A DNA stretch of 32,000 bases from Candidatus Hadarchaeota archaeon (GCA_964514965.1 CAZETV010000001.1:300001-332000), one strand, 5' to 3'; counted from the first letter of the stretch, positions 16,541-25,142 are shown. Numbers and translations: made by a program. Notes: generated by a model from the sequence alone, not told the origin.

Positions 16541-16897
16541 TCAGACTCTGCGCACGCTTATTTTATCTCCCGTTCGTGCGGCCCTAAATTTTTCAACGCC
16601 GCTCTTTATCCGAGCAAAAGTGTTCACAGGACTGATCGGCTGCGAGCGACCGAAGAATATGCAGAATCCTGGACCTTCAGGCCAATAAGAAACATCACCC
16701 GTTTGAGTTCTGGACTTTGGATTTTCCGGTTCAATTTTTACCGGAATGCCGAAGTAACCCTCTTCCTTCCAGATTTCCACTTCCGCATCGAACGGTAAAG
16801 CTTTCCAAATCGCGTCGCAGGTATTGGGGCAGAGCTTTTCGAGAAGCTCAGCCTCGACTTCGAAGTCACGGCAGACGATGACCAGCTTCCTCACCAC
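16541..16897 (-). CDS. Cyclophilin-like fold protein (TM1367/PF04126-like)
   Basis: 118 aa. The pattern A.A.W.ALP....EIWKEEGYF.IP...E.......GDVSYWPEGPGFCIFFG recalls the small cyclophilin-like family. GTG start is preceded by GAGGTGAT. Confidence 0.5.
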   Translation of the reverse strand: MVRKLVIVCRDFEVEAELLEKLCPNTCDAIWKALPFDAEVEIWKEEGYFGIPVKIEPENPKSRTQTGDVSYWPEGPGFCIFFGRSQPISPVNTFARIKSGVEKFRAARTGDKISVRRV

Positions 16898-17131: not shown

Positions 17132-17152
17132 AGAAAAAGTGAGGTGAAAAAG

Positions 17153-17902
17153 ATGAACGTTAGGGAGTTTGGCGCCGTATGCGACGTGAGTACGCTGGTC
17201 GACCGCACGAGTTTTGAGCGGGCGCAGCAGTTGCTGGACGGTGGCAATCTTTATCTGTCGTCTGCGACTTACAGCTGGCTAGCGCGCGACAAGCTAATTG
17301 CCGTCCGAGGCAACGCGCTTGGCTACAGCTTGGTGAGCCAGTTTGTGCGCGACCGAAAGCTGCTCGTCGTTTACCTGCCGGAACTGCTCGATGAGATATC
17401 ACGCCGCCTGCTTTTTGAGGTGCAGCGAGAAGTACCGCTCACCGACCTGCGAGCTCTGATGCTTGCGGCGCACCTTCGGTTGCCCCTGTTGACGTTCGAT
17501 GAAGGAGTCGTCGAGCGCCTTCGGGAATACGTAGGGGGGCGAGCACTTTGGCAGCTGGATGCGCATTCCGACTGGCTAGCACTCCGTGAGGCGCTGGAGC
17601 TCTACCGCGAGCTGGCGGGCGACGTGGGTAACTATCTTTACAAAAATCTGAACGACGGGCACTCGTTCGAGAATTTGGTCGATGAACTCCGGAGCTGGCG
17701 CGGCGATAGCCTGCGGACGGCGACAACAGCGGTGCGGAAGCTGAGCCAAGCGCGAACGAATCCGGGGGAGTTGAATTTCAGGTACATTACATGGGACTTG
17801 ACACCAATCCTGCGCGAGTACCTCAAGCAACATGTATTGCAGCCTGAGGTTGTACGTGAACTCTGCGAGCGGGCCCTGCTGCTAGTCGCGAATCCAAAAT
17901 AG
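17153..17902 (+). CDS. Hypothetical protein with PIN-like N-terminal domain and helical C-terminal extension
   Basis: ATG 17153 is preceded by GAGGTGA. The N-terminus has AVCDVSTLVD (PIN strand 1 Asp), and ...TDLRALMLAAHLRLPLLTFDEGV resembles the D.liaA.A....LlT.D..f end of VapC-type PIN domains. The usual second acidic residue is not obvious. GC is clearly above the neighbours. Confidence 0.45.
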   Translation: MNVREFGAVCDVSTLVDRTSFERAQQLLDGGNLYLSSATYSWLARDKLIAVRGNALGYSLVSQFVRDRKLLVVYLPELLDEISRRLLFEVQREVPLTDLRALMLAAHLRLPLLTFDEGVVERLREYVGGRALWQLDAHSDWLALREALELYRELAGDVGNYLYKNLNDGHSFENLVDELRSWRGDSLRTATTAVRKLSQARTNPGELNFRYITWDLTPILREYLKQHVLQPEVVRELCERALLLVANPK

Positions 17903-18129: not shown

Positions 18130-18188
18130 CCGCACGATACATAAAGACGTAGGACTAGTAAAAGAGAATTAAGGAGGTGATGATAAAC

Positions 18189-18944
18189 ATGAAACTTCTT
18201 CAAATGAGTCAACTCTTTGCCCTACCCCTTCAGTCAGCTATTAAAGCGCAGAATCTTGCTCTACAGGAAACGATTTCCTCCATAGAACAGCTCGGGCTAG
18301 AGAACGGCGCGGCGAAAACTTTTCGCTTTAAAGCCGAAAGAATGATTGAGGAGAGAAAGGTTGATCCAAAAACGGGAATCCCTGAAACACAAATCAAGAG
18401 TCAACCTTTCGAAGTGAGTATTCCCCTACTTGCGATGGTTGCGCCTCCAAGTATGAACATACGCGAGATGAACGTTGAATTTGGAGTGGAGGTAGTGGAA
18501 CCAAAAACTGAACCTATTAAATCAGGTACTATCACGCCAGCGGTACTCGGTTCTTCGCTTTCTCCCTCGTTGTGTCTTTTTACGTCCCTTGGCCAATCGA
18601 ATCCGACTACAATGAAGGTTAACATGAAAATAGTTAGAGAAATTCCGGAAGGGATGGCACGGGTGGGGGATGTACTCACCGACCTTTTGAGTGGACGGCC
18701 TCCAGTGACCGATGAAAAACCAACACCCGAAATAAATCTTGATGTTGAGAAGATAGCGGGCATAGGCGCGGAAAGAGCGGCCCTTCTGAGAGGTAAGGGA
18801 ATATTTACTGTTAAGGGACTAGTCCAAGCTACAAAAACATTTGAGGGAACAAAAGATCTTGCTACGGCCATCGGCGTTTCTTCAAAGCAAATGAGAGAGT
18901 GGAGAGAGAAGGGAAAACTATTAGAAGGGGGAGAAAAATCTTAG
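18189..18944 (+). CDS. Uncharacterized protein P1: paralog-family core plus C-terminal helix-hairpin-helix (DUF4332-like) module
   Basis: A perfect SD (AAGGAGGTGA, 18171-18180) lies 8 nt before ATG 18189 (alternative starts 18177/18180). It shares with P2 the motifs ALPLQ, AIKAQ.LA.Q, S/T-(I/V)PLLAMV..P...I..M.(V/I)(E/D)F and IPEG(M/L).R(V/I).D(V/I)L. The C-terminus EKIAGIGAERAALLRGKGIFTVKGL...AIGVSSKQMREW is HhH-like. Confidence 0.75.
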   Translation: MKLLQMSQLFALPLQSAIKAQNLALQETISSIEQLGLENGAAKTFRFKAERMIEERKVDPKTGIPETQIKSQPFEVSIPLLAMVAPPSMNIREMNVEFGVEVVEPKTEPIKSGTITPAVLGSSLSPSLCLFTSLGQSNPTTMKVNMKIVREIPEGMARVGDVLTDLLSGRPPVTDEKPTPEINLDVEKIAGIGAERAALLRGKGIFTVKGLVQATKTFEGTKDLATAIGVSSKQMREWREKGKLLEGGEKS

Positions 18945-18962
18945 GGCAGGAGGTGAAATAAA

Positions 18963-19655
18963 ATGGCAAACATACCTGCAGAGTTGAGAGCTCTTCCATT
19001 ACAACACATTATTGGATCGCCACTCGTAGCAGCTATAAAAGCACAGGCCTTGGCGGCCCAGACAACTGTGAACTTTATCAAAGAGGTGGGTCTTAAACCA
19101 AGAGCTTTAGAAGCTACTGAGAGCGAAGACAATCTGGATGAAGTAACTGGAGAAAGCGGCAAACCTGGTTATGAAGCCCGATATGTAGATTTCAAGTTCG
19201 ACAGGATAATAGAAGCAGAAGAGGTCACACCCCCAGCTGCTGACGCACCAGCTGGAACACCGCCGACTAAGACGACGAAGTATAGTGTTGTACCTTCCAA
19301 GCTTACAGTGCCACTTCTTGCAATGGTACCGATCCCATATATTCGAATCAATGATATGACTATTGACTTTGAATTCCAGATCAAGGATGTAGAGACAAAG
19401 GAATCCACTACTGAAAAGAAAGTATCTATGAATGCAAAGGCGGGAGGTTGGTTCTGGAAAGTTAACGTCAAGGGTTCCTATAGTAATAGAACTGTTAACA
19501 AGCGCCAGACGGACCGAAGAACAACTCTGAAAATCACAGTTAACGCAGTACAGGACCAGATACCGGAGGGTCTTGGAAGGATTCTAGATATACTCAATGA
19601 GGCGATGAAGGTTGTCCCGTTGACTGCGCCACAGGAAATAGCCGCACCGACCTAA
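18963..19655 (+). CDS. Uncharacterized protein P2: paralog of P1 with acidic and Pro/Ala/Thr-rich linker
   Basis: SD GGAGGTGA (18949-18956) lies 6 nt before the ATG. Motifs: ALPLQHIIGSPLVAAIKAQALAAQTTVNFIKEVGL, TVPLLAMVPIPYIRINDMTIDFEFQIK, and IPEGLGRILDILNEA. The low-complexity linker reads TPPAADAPAGTPPTKTTK. Confidence 0.75.
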   Translation: MANIPAELRALPLQHIIGSPLVAAIKAQALAAQTTVNFIKEVGLKPRALEATESEDNLDEVTGESGKPGYEARYVDFKFDRIIEAEEVTPPAADAPAGTPPTKTTKYSVVPSKLTVPLLAMVPIPYIRINDMTIDFEFQIKDVETKESTTEKKVSMNAKAGGWFWKVNVKGSYSNRTVNKRQTDRRTTLKITVNAVQDQIPEGLGRILDILNEAMKVVPLTAPQEIAAPT

Positions 19656-19679
19656 TTGCATCCAGTTTAAAAAAAGATG

Positions 19680-19710
19680 GGGGGCGAAAGTAATACCCAC
19701 TTTCCCTCCC
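19680..19710 (+). other. Intercistronic stem-loop between P2 and P3
   Basis: GGGGG-c-GAAAGT / loop AATACCC / ACTTTC-c-CTCCC gives 11 pairs (one G-U) with one C-C mismatch, followed by TTT. Read directly from the sequence. Confidence 0.4.
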
Positions 19711-19741
19711 TTTGCCATAATCTAGAAAGGAGAGATTGAAT

Positions 19742-20098
19742 ATGCCGAATAATAAAGAAGGAATAAGTTTAAGCGCAGTAGTTGGAGGCATCGTGCAAGC
19801 CTTAAGGGAAGCGAAGCACTTAGGAGATATAGAAAGTGCAAAATTATTTGAAACCTATAAAAAAGAAAAGGCCCTTTACCCATTCAGTGTTCCTGCTTTT
19901 ACAATTTCTGATACAGATATAGAATTGCGGTTTTCAATTATGCAGCCTTCTGAGGAGGAGAAAAGAAAAGGGCAGATACAAGACCTCAAGGTGAATGTTT
20001 CCTCAGAGTCTCTTAAAAAACTTGAAGCACACCAAGTCAGTGCAATGAAACTCAAGATTGCCCCTGTGAGTATGAGAGTCTTCGAGGAAAAAAAATAA
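19742..20098 (+). CDS. Uncharacterized protein P3: short divergent paralog of P1/P2
   Basis: SD GGAGAG lies 7 nt before ATG 19742 (ORF-track TTG at 19736). ISLSAVVGGIVQALREAK parallels LPLQHIIGSPLVAAIKAQ. FSVPAFTISDTDIELRFSI parallels TVPLLAMV...MTIDFEFQI. It lacks the IPEG tail. Confidence 0.65.
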   Translation: MPNNKEGISLSAVVGGIVQALREAKHLGDIESAKLFETYKKEKALYPFSVPAFTISDTDIELRFSIMQPSEEEKRKGQIQDLKVNVSSESLKKLEAHQVSAMKLKIAPVSMRVFEEKK

Positions 20099-20120
20099 AA
20101 TTCTTTGTATAAGGAGGGAA

Positions 20121-21074
20121 TTGGATATAATTTCAAGGAGCGATGTCATCAGAAACGCTGAACAATATAGAAATATTCAACCTTGGACCCCGACAAATAG
20201 TACACATGGAAATTTCCACAGCGCTTTTGTACATGGCGTAGACGACCCGGTGAGTCAAGAATGTAAGATACGGCAATACGATGTCTTTCCTTACGTGTAC
20301 GGTAGAACCTCTATTCTTACCGTAAATCAATTTTTAAACGCTGTACAACATGGAACCTGCCCCGGTGGCTGGGACACACAAACGGGATGGGGCACGGGAC
20401 ATTTTGGAAATATTCGAAGAAATCTTGCAGGAATAGATTGTTCCGAGTATGTAATGAAATCTTGGGGATTTGCGAGTAAGGTAATAAATGGAACTTGGTA
20501 CGGCACGACCAATTTACCACAATTATGTTTGCAAATAAGAAGAGACGAGTTAGGCACCGGAGATATATTGCTGAGAAGGGGGCACGTTAGGATTTTTGAT
20601 CGTTGGGTTGGTCCCGGTAGAAACAATGTTTGGATATACGAAGCCGCTGGGGCGAGAGACGAAACGCAAGCCCAACGTAACGCCTTACAGTGCCCATTCA
20701 ATCCCGGTGATGACCAAGGCTGTGTAGGCAGATGGATGAGACCATGGGATGCTGGATATACGCCGTATTCACCTTTTCCCCAATTTACAGACCCAACCCC
20801 TAGTATTTTTCAAGGGACCAACCCGCCAATATCTGTAAAGATCGCGGGAAGCGGAAATATAGGTGGAATGTCTATGTCTGTTGATGATAATTCAGTAAGT
20901 TTCTCGCCCAGTTCCGTTTACGATAGAAATCGTCGCAGAGCTTGTGTCCAAATCAACTGGATACCCAATCAAAGTTTATCATTCGGAACGCACACCGTAA
21001 AAGTTGGTGCAACAAACAGAATCTTAGAAAAAAATTTTTTTGCTGGATATACTTGGAATTTCGAGATTATATGA
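20121..21074 (+). CDS. NlpC/P60-like papain-fold cysteine hydrolase with beta-rich C-terminal domain
   Basis: AGIDCSEYV (Cys107, codon 20439-20441) followed by GDILLRRGHVRIF (His155, codon 20583-20585) and WIYEAAG (Glu174). The order and spacing match the NlpC/P60 Cys-His-polar triad. No N-terminal hydrophobic signal is present. TTG start lies just after AAGGAGGG. Confidence 0.65.
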   Translation: MDIISRSDVIRNAEQYRNIQPWTPTNSTHGNFHSAFVHGVDDPVSQECKIRQYDVFPYVYGRTSILTVNQFLNAVQHGTCPGGWDTQTGWGTGHFGNIRRNLAGIDCSEYVMKSWGFASKVINGTWYGTTNLPQLCLQIRRDELGTGDILLRRGHVRIFDRWVGPGRNNVWIYEAAGARDETQAQRNALQCPFNPGDDQGCVGRWMRPWDAGYTPYSPFPQFTDPTPSIFQGTNPPISVKIAGSGNIGGMSMSVDDNSVSFSPSSVYDRNRRRACVQINWIPNQSLSFGTHTVKVGATNRILEKNFFAGYTWNFEII

Positions 21075-21118: not shown

Positions 21119-22636
21119 CTACATGAACGCCTTCGCATCCTCGCGTTTGTGTAAATTACGCCGTTCGAACTCGCGTGCGGCTTCACCCAAACCAGTCCCA
21201 TGCGCCAACTCCCGCGAACTCCTCCGTCTAACTCTCACAAAGATAGGGTGATTCACGGCCTCGCCCACGACCAATGCCTCGCCCACAGGCAGCGAGGAGA
21301 TCATGTCTGCAACCTCGCTCGTTATCGCTTCCGAAGATTGTTTGATGTGCTCGAGGTCGTAGGGATTTGTGACGCGCAGGATGATGTTTGTGTTTGCCTG
21401 TGAAAGCACGGTTGTCGAGAGCCTCACTGGGCGTTGGGAAATGAGTATAAGCGAAGCGTAAAACTTTCGGCCCTCGCGAGCAAGTGTTTCAATTATCGGC
21501 CTCGAAATCGCCGTTTTCTTGGACTCGCCAGATGGGCAAAACTGATGAGCTTCCTCTAAGCAGAGCACAAACGGGGGCACGCAACCTCTTTTGCGGGCGT
21601 TAAATAACCTCCGCGTAGCATACGCCACGAAAATCTGTTTCTTCCTCAAGCTGACTACGTCGCTGAGGTCAATCACCACCACCTTTCCCGGCTCGACGAT
21701 ATTCTCCAATCTCGGACAATCGGCTAGGTCGAAGATGCCGAGTGAACGGAGGTCGAACAGCCACCCGAGCAAAGCCTGCTGAAGCTGTCTATGGATATCC
21801 CCGTCCCCATCAACCCGCGAGATGACCTCATCCAACCCAAACGGACCCTTGCCCGCACGCATCTCGGCTCGCAACTCGCCAAGCACCCGCTGAAGCTCGC
21901 GCGCTTGCATCCCGGAAATGTCGGGCATAAACTCCTTGAACTGATACGAGCTCAGGTTCGGCACGCCTATCTTGAGTTCTCTGCCTTTGACGACATTCAC
22001 GCGGTCGGGAAAACTTTCGACCAACCCAGTATACTCACCGTGAACATCAATCACGACGACAGCAGGCCGCCCCCGCTCGGGCAGACGACCTAGCAGCTCC
22101 TCAATTATCACCTGAGTGCTTACGCTCTTGCCGGCCCCACTCATTGCGAGCACCGCTACATGTTTACGCAACAGCCTCGTAAGGTCGAGCTTCACAGTTA
22201 GCTCGTGGTGCTTGAGTTTGCCCAGCCCTACCCCGTCGTCCGGATTTAATCCGAGAAATCGCGTTAGCACATCTAATCTAACTTCTTGCACTTTTTGCCC
22301 AGGTGACGGCGGGAAAGTAGTCCGCTCAAGCCCATACTCAGATTGGACCCCGAGCGCCTGAGCTTCGGCTATGAGGTACTCCCAGCGATCTATAGGAAAG
22401 ACTGTCGCCAGTGGTCTGCCGCCCCGCTCGTACTCTTTGACCGACTCGGCCCGCATGAAATACCGATTGGTTTTCATCAAGTTCGTGACGAAGGCTATCA
22501 CCCGCCCTTCCTCGGTCTCGACTTCTACGAATTGTCCTTTTCGAACCGGCATCTTACTTTGGGCCTCGGTGACTACGAAGGAAAATTTGCTTGGTGAGGG
22601 ACCATCCCCTGTAGCGACAATTGTTCCCAATTCCAT
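21119..22636 (-). CDS. herA: HerA-type hexameric DNA translocase/helicase (FtsK-HerA superfamily)
   Basis: 505 aa. The N-terminus is HAS-barrel-like (FSFVV...KGQFVEVE...GRVIAFV). Walker A LAMSGAGKS and Walker B-like VVVIDVHGEY are present. It lies 9 bp downstream of nurA. Confidence 0.85.
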   Translation of the reverse strand: MELGTIVATGDGPSPSKFSFVVTEAQSKMPVRKGQFVEVETEEGRVIAFVTNLMKTNRYFMRAESVKEYERGGRPLATVFPIDRWEYLIAEAQALGVQSEYGLERTTFPPSPGQKVQEVRLDVLTRFLGLNPDDGVGLGKLKHHELTVKLDLTRLLRKHVAVLAMSGAGKSVSTQVIIEELLGRLPERGRPAVVVIDVHGEYTGLVESFPDRVNVVKGRELKIGVPNLSSYQFKEFMPDISGMQARELQRVLGELRAEMRAGKGPFGLDEVISRVDGDGDIHRQLQQALLGWLFDLRSLGIFDLADCPRLENIVEPGKVVVIDLSDVVSLRKKQIFVAYATRRLFNARKRGCVPPFVLCLEEAHQFCPSGESKKTAISRPIIETLAREGRKFYASLILISQRPVRLSTTVLSQANTNIILRVTNPYDLEHIKQSSEAITSEVADMISSLPVGEALVVGEAVNHPIFVRVRRRSSRELAHGTGLGEAAREFERRNLHKREDAKAFM

Positions 22637-22645
22637 GAATTCACC

Positions 22646-23821
22646 TCAGAAAGGTCTCCGGTTCCGCCTCAGGTCGAGCAAGGCAGAGGGGCCGAGACGA
22701 TCCGCGATGCTGTCGCGCACGATGCTCAAATCCTCCTCGGTCAGACGGGCACACACATCCGCCTCGATGAGCACCGAAGGGAGCCCGAAAGCATCATGGT
22801 GAGAAGAAAGCGCGTAGACGAGCGGCGCGACGCTATCTGCAGTCGCCACGGGGTCGTCTCTGAACTCGATGAACTCCACTCGCAACGGGCGGTCGAACAG
22901 CACGGTCTTGAGGTAAAATGCGTAAACTCGCATCGCCCATTTGCCGATGTCGCGAAGCACATATTTCGATGGGCTCTCGGCATAGTGGAAGATGGAGGTA
23001 CGTTCTCCCACTCCGAGCACGTGATCGAGGAGAACTGTGTCCCGCGAGTGTTCTAGAATCTCCAGCTCTTTTTCTTCGAGGCCGAGACCACCTAAACTTG
23101 GTATCACTTTATGCCTGATGATATCGATAAAGCGCCCACCCCGGCTGTCCTTAACCGCGCCTGCAAGCAGAACCCCCGACTCCGCGCAGGTCTCGTAAAG
23201 CTTCGTGTACGCATTGAGGAGTTCGTGATAACGTTCAAGCAAGCTTTTGTTGTGGGGAAAGCGGTCGATGTACTGGGGCACTACAGAGCCGTCCAGTAAC
23301 AGGAGTTTAACTTCATTTGCTCGGAGCGCCTCGGTAGCGAGCTCAATTTCAGTCAGCTGACGTTCCATTCCGGCAAGGAGCTCAAATTCTCGAGCATCCA
23401 GCGGTTCCGTAACGTCAATCAGGCAAGGAAATGGTATCTCGCTTGGGAAGTATTTGGCCCACTCCAGACCGGCTTTGTGATAGTGAAATATTGCAACAAT
23501 CGCTCGCAAGAGGATGAGATCTAGACCATGAAGCTGCTGCTCTAGCATCCCTCCATCTACACCCGCTACCGTCAAATCCGCGAGTGCGTCTTGCTTAATC
23601 GGCTCCACGAGAGAATGCTCAATAATTTCTTCCACACCATCCAAAGCCACCTCCCTTAACCCAACGAGAGCCTTGGCAACCTTTCGCCTTTGCCCTTCCT
23701 GTTTGCGTATTCGCTCGGCTATGCTGTCAAGTGTGTCCTCAAGTCCTGCGTGTCCCTCTGAGAAACCAAACTTTCGTACAGGTGAAACCATTTGATCACC
23801 CATTTCACCGCTCGGACCCAT
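22646..23821 (-). CDS. nurA: NurA 5'-3' nuclease
   Basis: About 391 aa from ATG 23821 (GGGGGAGG SD 4 nt upstream; the longer ORF-track start at 23920 is unlikely). VAGVDGG and LLLDGSVVPQ motifs are typical of the NurA domain. It is paired with herA. Confidence 0.8.
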   Translation of the reverse strand: MGPSGEMGDQMVSPVRKFGFSEGHAGLEDTLDSIAERIRKQEGQRRKVAKALVGLREVALDGVEEIIEHSLVEPIKQDALADLTVAGVDGGMLEQQLHGLDLILLRAIVAIFHYHKAGLEWAKYFPSEIPFPCLIDVTEPLDAREFELLAGMERQLTEIELATEALRANEVKLLLLDGSVVPQYIDRFPHNKSLLERYHELLNAYTKLYETCAESGVLLAGAVKDSRGGRFIDIIRHKVIPSLGGLGLEEKELEILEHSRDTVLLDHVLGVGERTSIFHYAESPSKYVLRDIGKWAMRVYAFYLKTVLFDRPLRVEFIEFRDDPVATADSVAPLVYALSSHHDAFGLPSVLIEADVCARLTEEDLSIVRDSIADRLGPSALLDLRRNRRPF

Positions 23822-23900
23822 TTTTCCTCCCCCGATTTGGGAATGTGGAAGAATATTTAAGTGGATTTTGGGGAGAGGTCGGCGAAAGTAATTTATAAGG

Positions 23901-23908
23901 ATTATAAA
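23901..23908 (-). promoter_or_regulatory. Candidate TATA box for nurA-herA
   Basis: The minus strand reads ccTTTATAATccTTATAAATta, two TATA-like elements forming a 7-nt-arm inverted repeat (23892-23908), 70-80 nt upstream of the nurA ATG. Confidence 0.3.
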
Positions 23909-23939
23909 GGGGTGAAACAACCGACCTTCGAATGCCCAA

Positions 23940-25142
23940 TTACTTTATTTTCCGGCGGGCGGCTTCCTCAACGCGCTTTATTATCTCGCGGAGTGACAAG
24001 CCCGTTCGTTCAGCGATTTTTTTAACATCTTCGTACTCAGCGGCAGAACAGACCAGATTTCCCTGCTCTCGCGCTACTTTCACGCGAGGTTTGAATTCAC
24101 GCCCGGCTAGCTTCACACCAACCTGCACGACTTCTCGCTCGAGAGCGTAGCGGTGCACCGTAGGCAGTACGCGCACACCAAGAGTCCCAGTTTCCGATAT
24201 CAACACGCGCGCGAGTCGTTCGGCATCCTTGGGTCTGGCGAGCACCTTGATTAAAAAGCCAGGCCTTCCCTTCTTCATAATAACCGGAACGGCGCTCGCG
24301 TCCAGCGCGCCTTCCGCGAGCAGTTTTTCGATTGTGTAACCGACGACCTCACCCGAGACATCATCGACGTTCGTCTCGAGCACCGCTATCTCCTGAAGCT
24401 TGAGCTCGCGCCCGCTCGCCTCGCCCATGCAGACGCGCACGAGATTTGGCGAGGGAATTTTTCTCGCACCCGCGCCGTAGCCTATTGCATCAATGCGCAT
24501 CGCAGGGCATACATCGACGAATCGGTTGGCAAGCGTGACGATCAGGGCCGCGCCAGTTGGGGTGGTGAGTTCGACGTTCGCAGCCACGCCTCGAATTGGT
24601 TTTCCTCGAAGAATTTCAAGCGTGGCCGGGGCTGGCAGGGGAATCTTGCCGTGAATAAAATTTGTAACTCCCTTTCCAACAGCTACTTCACTCACCAATA
24701 CCTCACCTTCGAATAGCCCCAGCTCATTGGCGGCCGTGCAGCATCCCACGATATCGGCGATTGCATCCGCCGCACCGACTTCGTGCAGTACAAGCCGCTC
24801 CAGACGCTTGCGGTGCACACGGGCCTCAGCGCGGGCGAGTACCCCCAGCGTTTCGAGTACTTTAAGCTCGACTTTAGGTTGCAGGCTGAGCCGTTTGACC
24901 CCCTCAACAATTTCGGGATAGGTGCGCCCGCTTTTATCGCTCGTTTTGACTTCAACCCGAGTTGCCTTGATTTCGTTCACTTTAACCCGTTTGATTCCCA
25001 CCTCGACGCTATCGAATGGCTTAGCGGCGGTAAGCATAGCGCTCTTCACCCGTTGGGGGCTCGCGCCGGCGTCGATGAGCGCGGCGGTCAACATGTCCCC
25101 CGAAACGCCCGCAATGCTGCAGTCTATGAACGCGAGTTTCAT
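23940..25142 (-). CDS. larC: Nickel-pincer cofactor biosynthesis protein LarC (DUF111, nickel insertion)
   Basis: 400 aa. The N-terminus MKLAFIDCSIAGVSGDMLTAALIDAGA is the hallmark LarC start, and the C-terminal half includes MKKGRPG. Confidence 0.85.
   Translation of the reverse strand: MKLAFIDCSIAGVSGDMLTAALIDAGASPQRVKSAMLTAAKPFDSVEVGIKRVKVNEIKATRVEVKTSDKSGRTYPEIVEGVKRLSLQPKVELKVLETLGVLARAEARVHRKRLERLVLHEVGAADAIADIVGCCTAANELGLFEGEVLVSEVAVGKGVTNFIHGKIPLPAPATLEILRGKPIRGVAANVELTTPTGAALIVTLANRFVDVCPAMRIDAIGYGAGARKIPSPNLVRVCMGEASGRELKLQEIAVLETNVDDVSGEVVGYTIEKLLAEGALDASAVPVIMKKGRPGFLIKVLARPKDAERLARVLISETGTLGVRVLPTVHRYALEREVVQVGVKLAGREFKPRVKVAREQGNLVCSAAEYEDVKKIAERTGLSLREIIKRVEEAARRKIK

Follow-up and report, generated by a model that had tools for sequence, protein, structure and literature searches.

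A 32,000-nucleotide stretch of the chromosome of a Candidatus Hadarchaeota archaeon (GCA_964514965.1, CAZETV010000001.1:300001-332000; hereafter the window) carries, at positions 18189-21074, a four-gene operon which the archaeon gained horizontally. Its first two genes, P1 and P2, encode proteins of the DUF2589 family, the third, P3, encodes a protein of the AF_0414 family that by profile comparison is remotely related to DUF2589, and the fourth, P4, encodes a predicted Cys-His hydrolase of the NlpC/P60 type. With low confidence, we propose as one possible reading of this arrangement that the products of P1-P3 would form a heteromeric membrane-active complex working together with an exchangeable cell-wall-targeting enzyme.

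Results

Organization and foreign origin of the operon

Four open reading frames (ORFs) lie on the + strand between positions 18177 and 21074. P1 (18189-18944) encodes 251 amino acids, or 255 if a GTG at 18177 is taken as its start; P2 (18963-19655) encodes a full-length DUF2589 protein of 230 amino acids; P3 (19742-20098) encodes an AF_0414 protein of 118 amino acids, or 120 from a TTG at 19736; and P4 (20121-21074), which belongs to the same unit and was absent from an initial annotation of this DNA made from the sequence alone, encodes an NlpC/P60-type hydrolase of 317 amino acids. A strong GGAGG-type ribosome-binding site precedes each of the four. That of P1 reads GGAGGTG and is placed 9 nucleotides 5' of the ATG at 18189, which is the likely start because the GTG at 18177 falls within the Shine-Dalgarno motif. 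Translation from 18189 begins with MKLLQMSQLFALPLQ, and the orthologues of P1 start with MK...LFALPLQ; the start that had been assigned at 18189 is thus favoured by both the Shine-Dalgarno spacing and the N-termini of the homologues. In the case of P3, the ATG at 19742 is preferred over the TTG because P3 homologues begin with MP(D/N)EKEG, and the resulting 118-residue protein is 100% identical to a database protein (P0001).

The cassette has a GC content of 43.1% and a GC content at third codon positions (GC3) of 35-41%, as compared with 50-58% and 55-69%, respectively, for the flanking genes encoding Trm5, HerA, NurA and a 252-residue protein (orf252). The window itself is archaeal chromosome, carrying genes for Cdc48, an archaeal-type phosphoglycerate mutase, ThiC, HisD, a LarC-like protein, Trm5, HerA and NurA, and it is the low GC and GC3 amid these housekeeping genes that mark the cassette as foreign. 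AT-rich intergenic sequence upstream of P1 (17903-18188, + strand, 35.8% GC) forms the left edge of the low-GC island, and the promoter of the cassette is presumed to lie within it. No tRNA gene, flanking repeat or terminator was found at the island edges. The 80-nucleotide spacer between P2 and P3 contains a G/C-rich stem-loop with a 12-bp stem (GGGGGGCGAAAGU...ACUUUCCCUCCC, 19679-19711), the folding energy of which was not separable from that of shuffled sequences (z -1.27).

P1 and P2, two clear DUF2589 paralogs

The initial annotation described the first three genes as a triad of paralogs sharing an N-terminal helix motif and a strand motif, and likened them to the DUF2589-type proteins of bacteria. 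As regards P1 and P2 this comparison was correct. With a Pfam gathering cut-off of 23 bits for PF11655 (DUF2589), P1 scored 54.3 bits (E 2.5e-14, model positions 2-152 of 154) and P2 106.6 bits (E 2e-30, model positions 1-153), and BLASTP aligned the two proteins with each other over ~210 residues with 27% identity (E 2e-10). The alignment spans the N-terminal helix, the (V/I)PLLAMV..P motif and the TxK(V/I)...IPEG(M/L).R(V/I).D(V/I)L motif, the last of which had been proposed, as T(M/L)K(V/I)...IPEG(M/L).R(V/I).D(V/I)L, to be shared by these two proteins. As judged from profile scores and alignment, P1 and P2 are clear paralogs and genuine DUF2589 proteins, carrying the hallmarks of the family (N-terminal helix, VPLL(A/T)(I/M)VPIP motif and IPEGL helix). 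The family is not confined to bacteria, as had been implied; the present copy resides in an archaeal chromosome.

Besides its archaeal host, P1 departs from PF11655 by an added C-terminal helix-hairpin-helix/DUF4332-like domain (18741-18911, + strand) with the motif I.GIG...A..L...GI.T. This tail matched HHH_5 (E 1.3e-4) and DUF4332 (E 4.5e-4), both under the Pfam cut-offs; its motif is kept in the first-gene orthologues, one of which (locus L004) has a weak precomputed DUF4332 match. The strand motif of P1, SIPLLAMVAPPSMNIREMNVEFGVEVV (18417-18497, + strand), is aligned by BLASTP to that of P2, TVPLLAMVPIPYIRINDMTIDFEFQIK (19305-19385, + strand), in which V116, P117, L119, P123, P125 and F136 vary little or not at all across the family.

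Downstream of this motif, residues 154-170 of P2 (VSMNAKAGGWFWKVNVK, 19422-19472, + strand) have the pattern of a conserved amphipathic beta-hairpin with a Gly/aromatic tip (VSMNAKA-GG-WFWKVNVK), and GGGVLGILGGPSG-type tips occur at the same position in other clades. The family-averaged hydropathy of the hairpin alternates strictly (HpHpHpH...HHpHpHp), and such alternation was seen in all P2 strands, not in the hairpin alone. An AlphaFold2 (AF2) model of P2 (mean predicted local distance difference test score, pLDDT, 68.8) consists of a helix at residues 13-43, four strands of 16-20 residues and a helix at 202-213; residues 144-181 are unstructured in the model, with pLDDT of 30-43 at the hairpin. 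Foldseek comparison of this model with the PDB revealed no significant fold match (best E 0.45), and among viral models in BFVD it detected one homologue, A0A516MP19 (178 amino acids, E 2e-9, 25% identity), the rest being noise. Single-sequence searches of the PDB with P2, P3 and P4 gave nothing useful, nor did searches of NCBIfam, PADLOC and PHROGs with P1-P4.

P3, a remote DUF2589 relative of the AF_0414 family

In contrast to P1 and P2, P3 had no match to PF11655 even at E<=1, and its BLASTP scores were not significant (E 0.28 versus P2 and 4.5 versus P1). Its family assignment is made via the identical entry P0001 and all 21 homologues, for which matches to PF27375 (AF_0414, named after Archaeoglobus fulgidus AF0414) are precomputed; DUF2589 genes stand alongside these homologues in every case. 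When only close P3 homologues were used, hhalign gave a probability of 14.7% against DUF2589, with the strand motif alone aligned. A search of 1.84 billion representative proteins yielded 397 members of AF_0414, and a diverse 52-sequence alignment built from these matched a 48-sequence DUF2589 alignment with a probability of 81.6% (E 1.1e-5) over 70 columns. These columns correspond to the N-terminal helix and the Pro-rich strand motif, between which an extra beta-hairpin is inserted in DUF2589. With wider, partly independent alignments taken from other loci, the probability was 92.7-94.7% (E 6e-8 to 4e-7). Against a score of 40.3 for the real pair, none of the decoys (reversed profile, 30 shuffles of the columns, unrelated family) went beyond 18.8. 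Likewise, an AF_0414 hidden Markov model (HMM) run against 2,418 ORFs matched P2 at E 6.7e-6, one of 29 DUF2589 ORFs matched in all, several of which are duplicate copies of one locus.

The strand motif of P3, FSVPAFTISDTDIELRFSI (19883-19939, + strand), which like those of P1 and P2 translates exactly as the initial annotation quoted it, is paired by hhalign with residues 123-144 of P2, and no confident alignment of the C-terminal halves of P3 and DUF2589 was obtained. The AF2 model of P3 (pLDDT 88.9) has a helix at residues 12-43, strands at 60-71 and 84-87, a short helix at 90-94 and a strand at 102-108, in the numbering of the 120-residue form (2 is to be subtracted for the 118-residue form). 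It agrees with the model of P2 in having, near the N-terminus, an equally placed helix of ~30 residues, followed by strands. The best Foldseek match of the P3 model in the PDB had an E-value of 3.0, so that neither of the two models, the structural comparison of which had been suggested from the outset, matched a solved structure.

P3 could instead be an unrelated small neighbour resembling DUF2589 by chance or convergence, with only P1 and P2 related to each other. The non-significant BLASTP scores, the 14.7% obtained with close homologues and the failure of the C-terminal halves to align would be expected in that case. Such an explanation is nevertheless highly improbable, given hhalign probabilities of 82-95% with diverse profiles while every decoy stayed near zero, the direct match of the AF_0414 model to P2, the equally placed N-terminal helix and the adjacency of DUF2589 and AF_0414 genes in almost every locus. 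By profile comparison, P3 is thus a minimal remote relative of DUF2589 in a separate family, not a third DUF2589 copy. Accordingly, the triad of paralogs holds for P1 and P2, and extends to P3 only in this remote sense; the motif matches drawn by eye for P3 were recovered by hhalign in the N-terminal helix and the strand, well above background, and not by pairwise BLASTP.

Many AF_0414 members are 230-400 residues long, with the core split by a helical insert, as compared with only 118 residues in P3. In many AF_0414 proteins of 224-333 residues (P0189, P0190, P0195, P0200, P0202, P0206 and P0219), a helical domain of ~100-200 residues follows the first strand of the core and separates it from the C-terminal strands, and P0194 carries, instead of the insert, a ComEA-type HHH_3 domain fused to its N-terminus.

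P4, a predicted NlpC/P60-type hydrolase

In P4, the N-terminal domain carries a CPGGWD motif; the NlpC/P60-type core (20412-20654, + strand) comes next and is followed by a YSPFPQF linker and by a C-terminal domain that is variable. Nineteen P4 homologues share the pattern GIDCS...GHVRIF...YEA, in which His155 (20583-20585) is invariant and Cys107 (20439-20441) and Glu174 are nearly so, Glu174 being the likely third catalytic residue. A profile of the P4 family matched Escherichia coli Spr/MepS (E 1.9e-5), the catalytic Cys and His of that enzyme (GIDCSGFV...GRHVGIY) being aligned with those of P4. P4 matched no Pfam or NCBIfam family at E<=1, and hence no curated NlpC/P60 model; by its catalytic motif and the profile match it is an NlpC/P60-type Cys-His hydrolase, with predicted activity. 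The core with the GIDCS cysteine and GHV histidine is common to P4 and the MepS-type endopeptidases (PDB 2k1g and 8xud). Unlike MepS, P4 has no lipoprotein or signal sequence, carries additional domains at both ends (with CPGGWD in the N-terminal one), and is encoded in an organism that lacks murein.

No signal-peptide-like N-terminus was found in P4 by a crude hydropathy test (not SignalP), and the same test showed no hydrophobic segment in P1-P4 of the length that a transmembrane helix or signal peptide needs; the highest 19-residue Kyte-Doolittle mean, 1.46, falls in a stretch with four prolines. There are seven cysteines in P4, three of them conserved, as compared with none or one in each of P1-P3.

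Related cassettes in other genomes

Altogether 96 related loci were collected from genomes, metagenomes, plasmids and viral contigs, and the ORFs of 94 of these were classified by HMMs. Wherever a locus was long enough to judge, the DUF2589 and AF_0414 genes were nearly always adjacent, with tight or overlapping spacing (-4 to ~100 nucleotides). Three layouts were distinguished. The window-type layout, made up of a DUF2589 gene with or without the helix-hairpin-helix tail, a second DUF2589 gene, an AF_0414 gene and a variable fourth gene, was seen in Nostocaceae, Calditrichota, Ca. Pyrohabitans (Hydrothermarchaeota) and many metagenome contigs, in each case with unrelated flanks. Most metagenome loci have a second layout, comprising DUF2589, a long AF_0414 gene with its core split by the helical insert, and an unrelated helical protein of ~190 residues. 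The third, Bacteroidota-type layout (loci L012 and L013 and a Fulvitalea plasmid) consists of a regulator, DUF2589, long AF_0414, DUF2589 and a small zinc-ribbon protein.

Among window-type cassettes P2 is the most conserved gene product (73-89% identity), reaching 89% between the Hadarchaeota copy and that of a Calditrichota bacterium, and is followed by P1 (55-64%) and P3 (50-64%); P4 is either 40-43% identical or swapped for a non-homologous gene. The cassette is a four-gene unit that moves horizontally between domains. In phages P2 matched 1 of 50,697 records, and the P3 and P4 profiles matched nothing in IMG/VR, where the window-type cassette is absent.

The ~190-residue protein of the common metagenome layout is all-helical and constant as the third gene (L032 1895-2476, L035 1996-2568, L044 6358-6936 and 12 other loci). 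It had no Pfam match, and the idea that it might be a divergent DUF2589 protein was rejected, as it belongs to an unrelated helical family. The zinc-ribbon protein (72-88 amino acids; L012 10240-10503, L013 10246-10464, L096 7485-7730) has the pattern CPRC...CPHC followed by a basic coiled tail, and its gene comes after the DUF2589/AF_0414/DUF2589 trio of the Bacteroidota-type cassettes. Two loci, L082 and L093, contain five DUF2589 paralogues (205-458 amino acids) with a single AF_0414 gene in the middle of the array, which suggests that DUF2589 can multiply well beyond the trio. An apparent AF_0414-NlpC/P60 fusion in L022 turned out to be an artefact of ORF calling.

No function of DUF2589 or AF_0414 was found in the searchable literature, which holds incidental mentions only. 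A block of short DUF2589-related genes of A. fulgidus, AF0414-AF0417, is induced on lactate (PMC3949148), and a meropenem study of Bacteroides fragilis includes one DUF2589 gene in its table of differential expression (PMC11402942).

Peptidoglycan-related genes at the fourth position and near the trio

In the clade of the window the fourth gene is the NlpC/P60 gene described above. Both Bacteroidota-type contigs, L012 and L013, carry downstream of the trio, and on the same strand, a gene combining PG_binding_1 with an N-acetylmuramidase domain (PF11860, E ~1e-67), separated from the trio in L013 by one small zinc-ribbon gene. We take this muramidase to be of the same family as TtsA, the muramidase of typhoid-toxin secretion. 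The fourth gene of L028 encodes PASTA domains (E 1.9e-13) with a DUF4332 tail. Weaker links are given by sub-threshold matches to Peptidase_M15_4 in L009 (E 0.0017) and to CHAP in L004 (E 0.16), and by an annotated peptidoglycan-binding protein near the copy on a Vibrio plasmid. Two readings made by eye were not confirmed: a SleB-like reading of the fourth gene in Ca. Pyrohabitans and L027 found no support in Pfam, NCBIfam and PDB profile searches, and an M15-like reading of that in L009 and L010 had only the sub-threshold Pfam match, the PDB profile search being empty. By crude hydropathy, the fourth-gene products have neither an N-terminus resembling a signal peptide nor a hydrophobic window of 19 residues, and direct inspection of the N-terminus of the L012 muramidase likewise revealed no signal peptide.

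The predicted peptidoglycan link of the window-type and Bacteroidota-type cassettes is real, as judged from these domains. It is not universal for DUF2589/AF_0414, since the genes downstream in the common metagenome type are heterogeneous.

Neighbouring genes

The ORF directly upstream of the island (orf252, 17144-17902, + strand, 58% GC, GC3 69%) had no match in Pfam, NCBIfam, PADLOC or PHROGs. On the other side, genes with native GC content for a HerA-like ATPase (505 amino acids; PADLOC HerA models to E 8e-50) and NurA (PF09376, E 2.5e-18) occupy 21119-23920 on the - strand and converge on the cassette; no Mre11 or Rad50 gene lies between them and the next gene, which encodes a LarC-type nickel-insertion protein (23940-25142, - strand, PF01969, E 1e-119). 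This gene and that of a cyclophilin-like protein (16541-16897, - strand, PF04126, E 8e-29) are ordinary host genes by appearance.

Discussion

From the near-constant adjacency of DUF2589 and AF_0414 genes and their tight or overlapping spacing, a heteromeric assembly of P1-P3 may reasonably be inferred. In the function that we tentatively propose, the three proteins would join into a hetero-oligomer through their shared, small-residue-rich N-terminal helices, and the complex would engage a membrane by way of the amphipathic, Gly/aromatic-tipped beta-hairpin of its DUF2589 subunits. It could thereby give a peptidoglycan-targeting enzyme that lacks a signal peptide access to the wall, by exporting it from the cell that makes it or by opening a breach in a target cell, with the fourth component being exchangeable between cassettes. 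In the archaeal host the target would likely be neighbouring bacteria, because the archaeon has no peptidoglycan of its own.

Several observations weigh against this proposal. Membrane activity is deduced from a sequence pattern, and the confidence of the AF2 model is low exactly there; and Foldseek found no relative among pore-forming toxins or holins. The fourth genes of L008/L027, L019 and L020 received no assignment from the searches, and the commonest layout, that of the metagenome loci, has no consistent peptidoglycan enzyme among its heterogeneous downstream genes. Enzymes of the NlpC/P60 type also use substrates other than peptidoglycan. Moreover, the helix-hairpin-helix tail of P1 points to nucleic-acid binding, which the model leaves unexplained.

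This last feature would suit an intracellular role, in which the proteins would build a cytoplasmic polymer or a nucleoid-associated complex and the fourth gene would be an accessory, such as a subunit-processing peptidase or amidase, or a passenger. No other alternative considered here naturally explains why helix-hairpin-helix domains appear on varied members (P1, the HHH_3-AF_0414 protein P0194, and the PASTA and DUF4332 protein of L028). All four proteins lack export signals, the conservation of P2 resembles that of polymer-forming proteins, and the cassettes of the common metagenome type have no peptidoglycan enzyme, all as an intracellular assembly would have it. Peptidoglycan-specific domains nevertheless recur beside the trio (PG_binding_1 with muramidase, PASTA, NlpC/P60), and the cysteine content of P4, as opposed to that of P1-P3, fits an extracellular enzyme; on balance we consider an intracellular role rather unlikely.

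Among known systems, holin-endolysin pairs and type 10 secretion resemble the cassette in combining a signal-less hydrolase, drawn from interchangeable catalytic families, with small partner genes. The cassette differs from them in that its partner proteins have no transmembrane helices, no other ORF lies inside it, and it contains no holin, spanin or obvious cargo gene. A phage lysis cassette was rejected, as phage genomes contain practically none of these families (one record in the phage set and nothing in IMG/VR); the flanks in the window are housekeeping genes. The missing holin-like helix could mean that the trio is itself the cargo, a toxin-like or surface complex that is secreted or released and for which the hydrolase opens the wall, as the muramidases of type 10 secretion do, or aids penetration of a target. 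The signal-less muramidase of the TtsA family beside the Bacteroidota trio would agree with this, and the extreme conservation of P2 is what one would expect of the subunit of a particle or polymer. The same absence counts the other way, as the cassette then offers no holin-like membrane protein to carry the hydrolase across the membrane, and the archaeal host has no wall to be opened. We consider a role as cargo unlikely.

The pore-plus-hydrolase logic of the membrane-active complex would apply equally to programmed lysis or abortive infection, in which, upon a trigger such as phage or envelope stress, the complex permeabilises the membrane of its own cell and the hydrolase destroys the wall. 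In line with this, some loci have genes of toxin or defence type next to the mobile cassette (L004 has ParE, and L009 patatin and radical SAM), one cassette is followed closely by a Pycsar-type pair (Guanylate_cyc E 5e-13, PycTM E 4e-19), LytTR or other response regulators stand directly upstream in the Bacteroidota type, and the B. fragilis gene appears among those listed as differentially expressed in the meropenem study (PMC11402942). Such defence neighbours are sporadic, however. Among the anti-phage systems of PADLOC, P2, P3 and P4 had no match and P1 only a chance-level one (0.051) in its helix-hairpin-helix tail, and in an archaeal host without peptidoglycan the hydrolase would be unable to lyse its producer. 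We regard self-destruction as improbable.

With regard to the membrane-active complex, the predicted P2 shares with the beta-barrel pore-forming toxins (aerolysin, haemolysin, CDC/MACPF) solubility, very long beta-strands and a candidate amphipathic hairpin that could insert into a membrane. There is no significant fold match between them, and the Foldseek matches to pore-state structures (E 1.6-5) reflect the long-hairpin shape only. A bacterial gasdermin with its protease was rejected as well: no gasdermin was present among the best 50 of 142 Foldseek matches in the PDB, and the fourth gene of other clades encodes a muramidase or PASTA protein, not a protease.

Another parallel in biology may be the archaeal secreted peptidoglycan hydrolases that kill bacteria, Woldo and Danwoldo (Strock et al., 2025; PMC12352652), where an archaeon likewise employs a horizontally acquired enzyme against a polymer that is not its own. 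The passages of that report dealing with these enzymes make no mention of a DUF2589 or AF_0414 partner. They state that about two-thirds of archaeal peptidoglycan hydrolases have no recognised signal peptide and must exit otherwise. As described there, the survey was Pfam-based and P4, having no Pfam match, would not have been counted. By analogy, a bacterial target in the archaeal host fits the use of acquired peptidoglycan hydrolases reported in those passages (PMC12352652), and we hold loosely to a view of the cassette as a signal-less wall hydrolase with dedicated partners. A bolder version, in which the DUF2589/AF_0414 trio would be an unrecognised membrane-breaching machine, made up of soluble subunits in which a helix and a long hairpin form a fold of their own, served by swappable signal-less peptidoglycan enzymes and spreading between bacteria and archaea, where it would act as an archaeal weapon against bacteria, seems doubtful to us.

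DUF2589 and AF_0414 are widespread, catalogued families, which are now tied to each other by remote homology and near-obligate gene adjacency. The window-type block, four genes in all, has been transferred across domains as a unit; in one subunit, the identity between an archaeal and a bacterial copy reaches 89%. If the proposed function is true, the cassette would represent a route for exporting or delivering cell-wall hydrolases without a signal peptide, would bear on the question, as it arises from the passages cited above (PMC12352652), of how signal-less archaeal peptidoglycan hydrolases leave the cell, and would add a pore- or carrier-forming fold without a solved counterpart. Should the functional reading be wrong, the cassette would still offer a compact four-gene target for approaching the function of two uncharacterised families.

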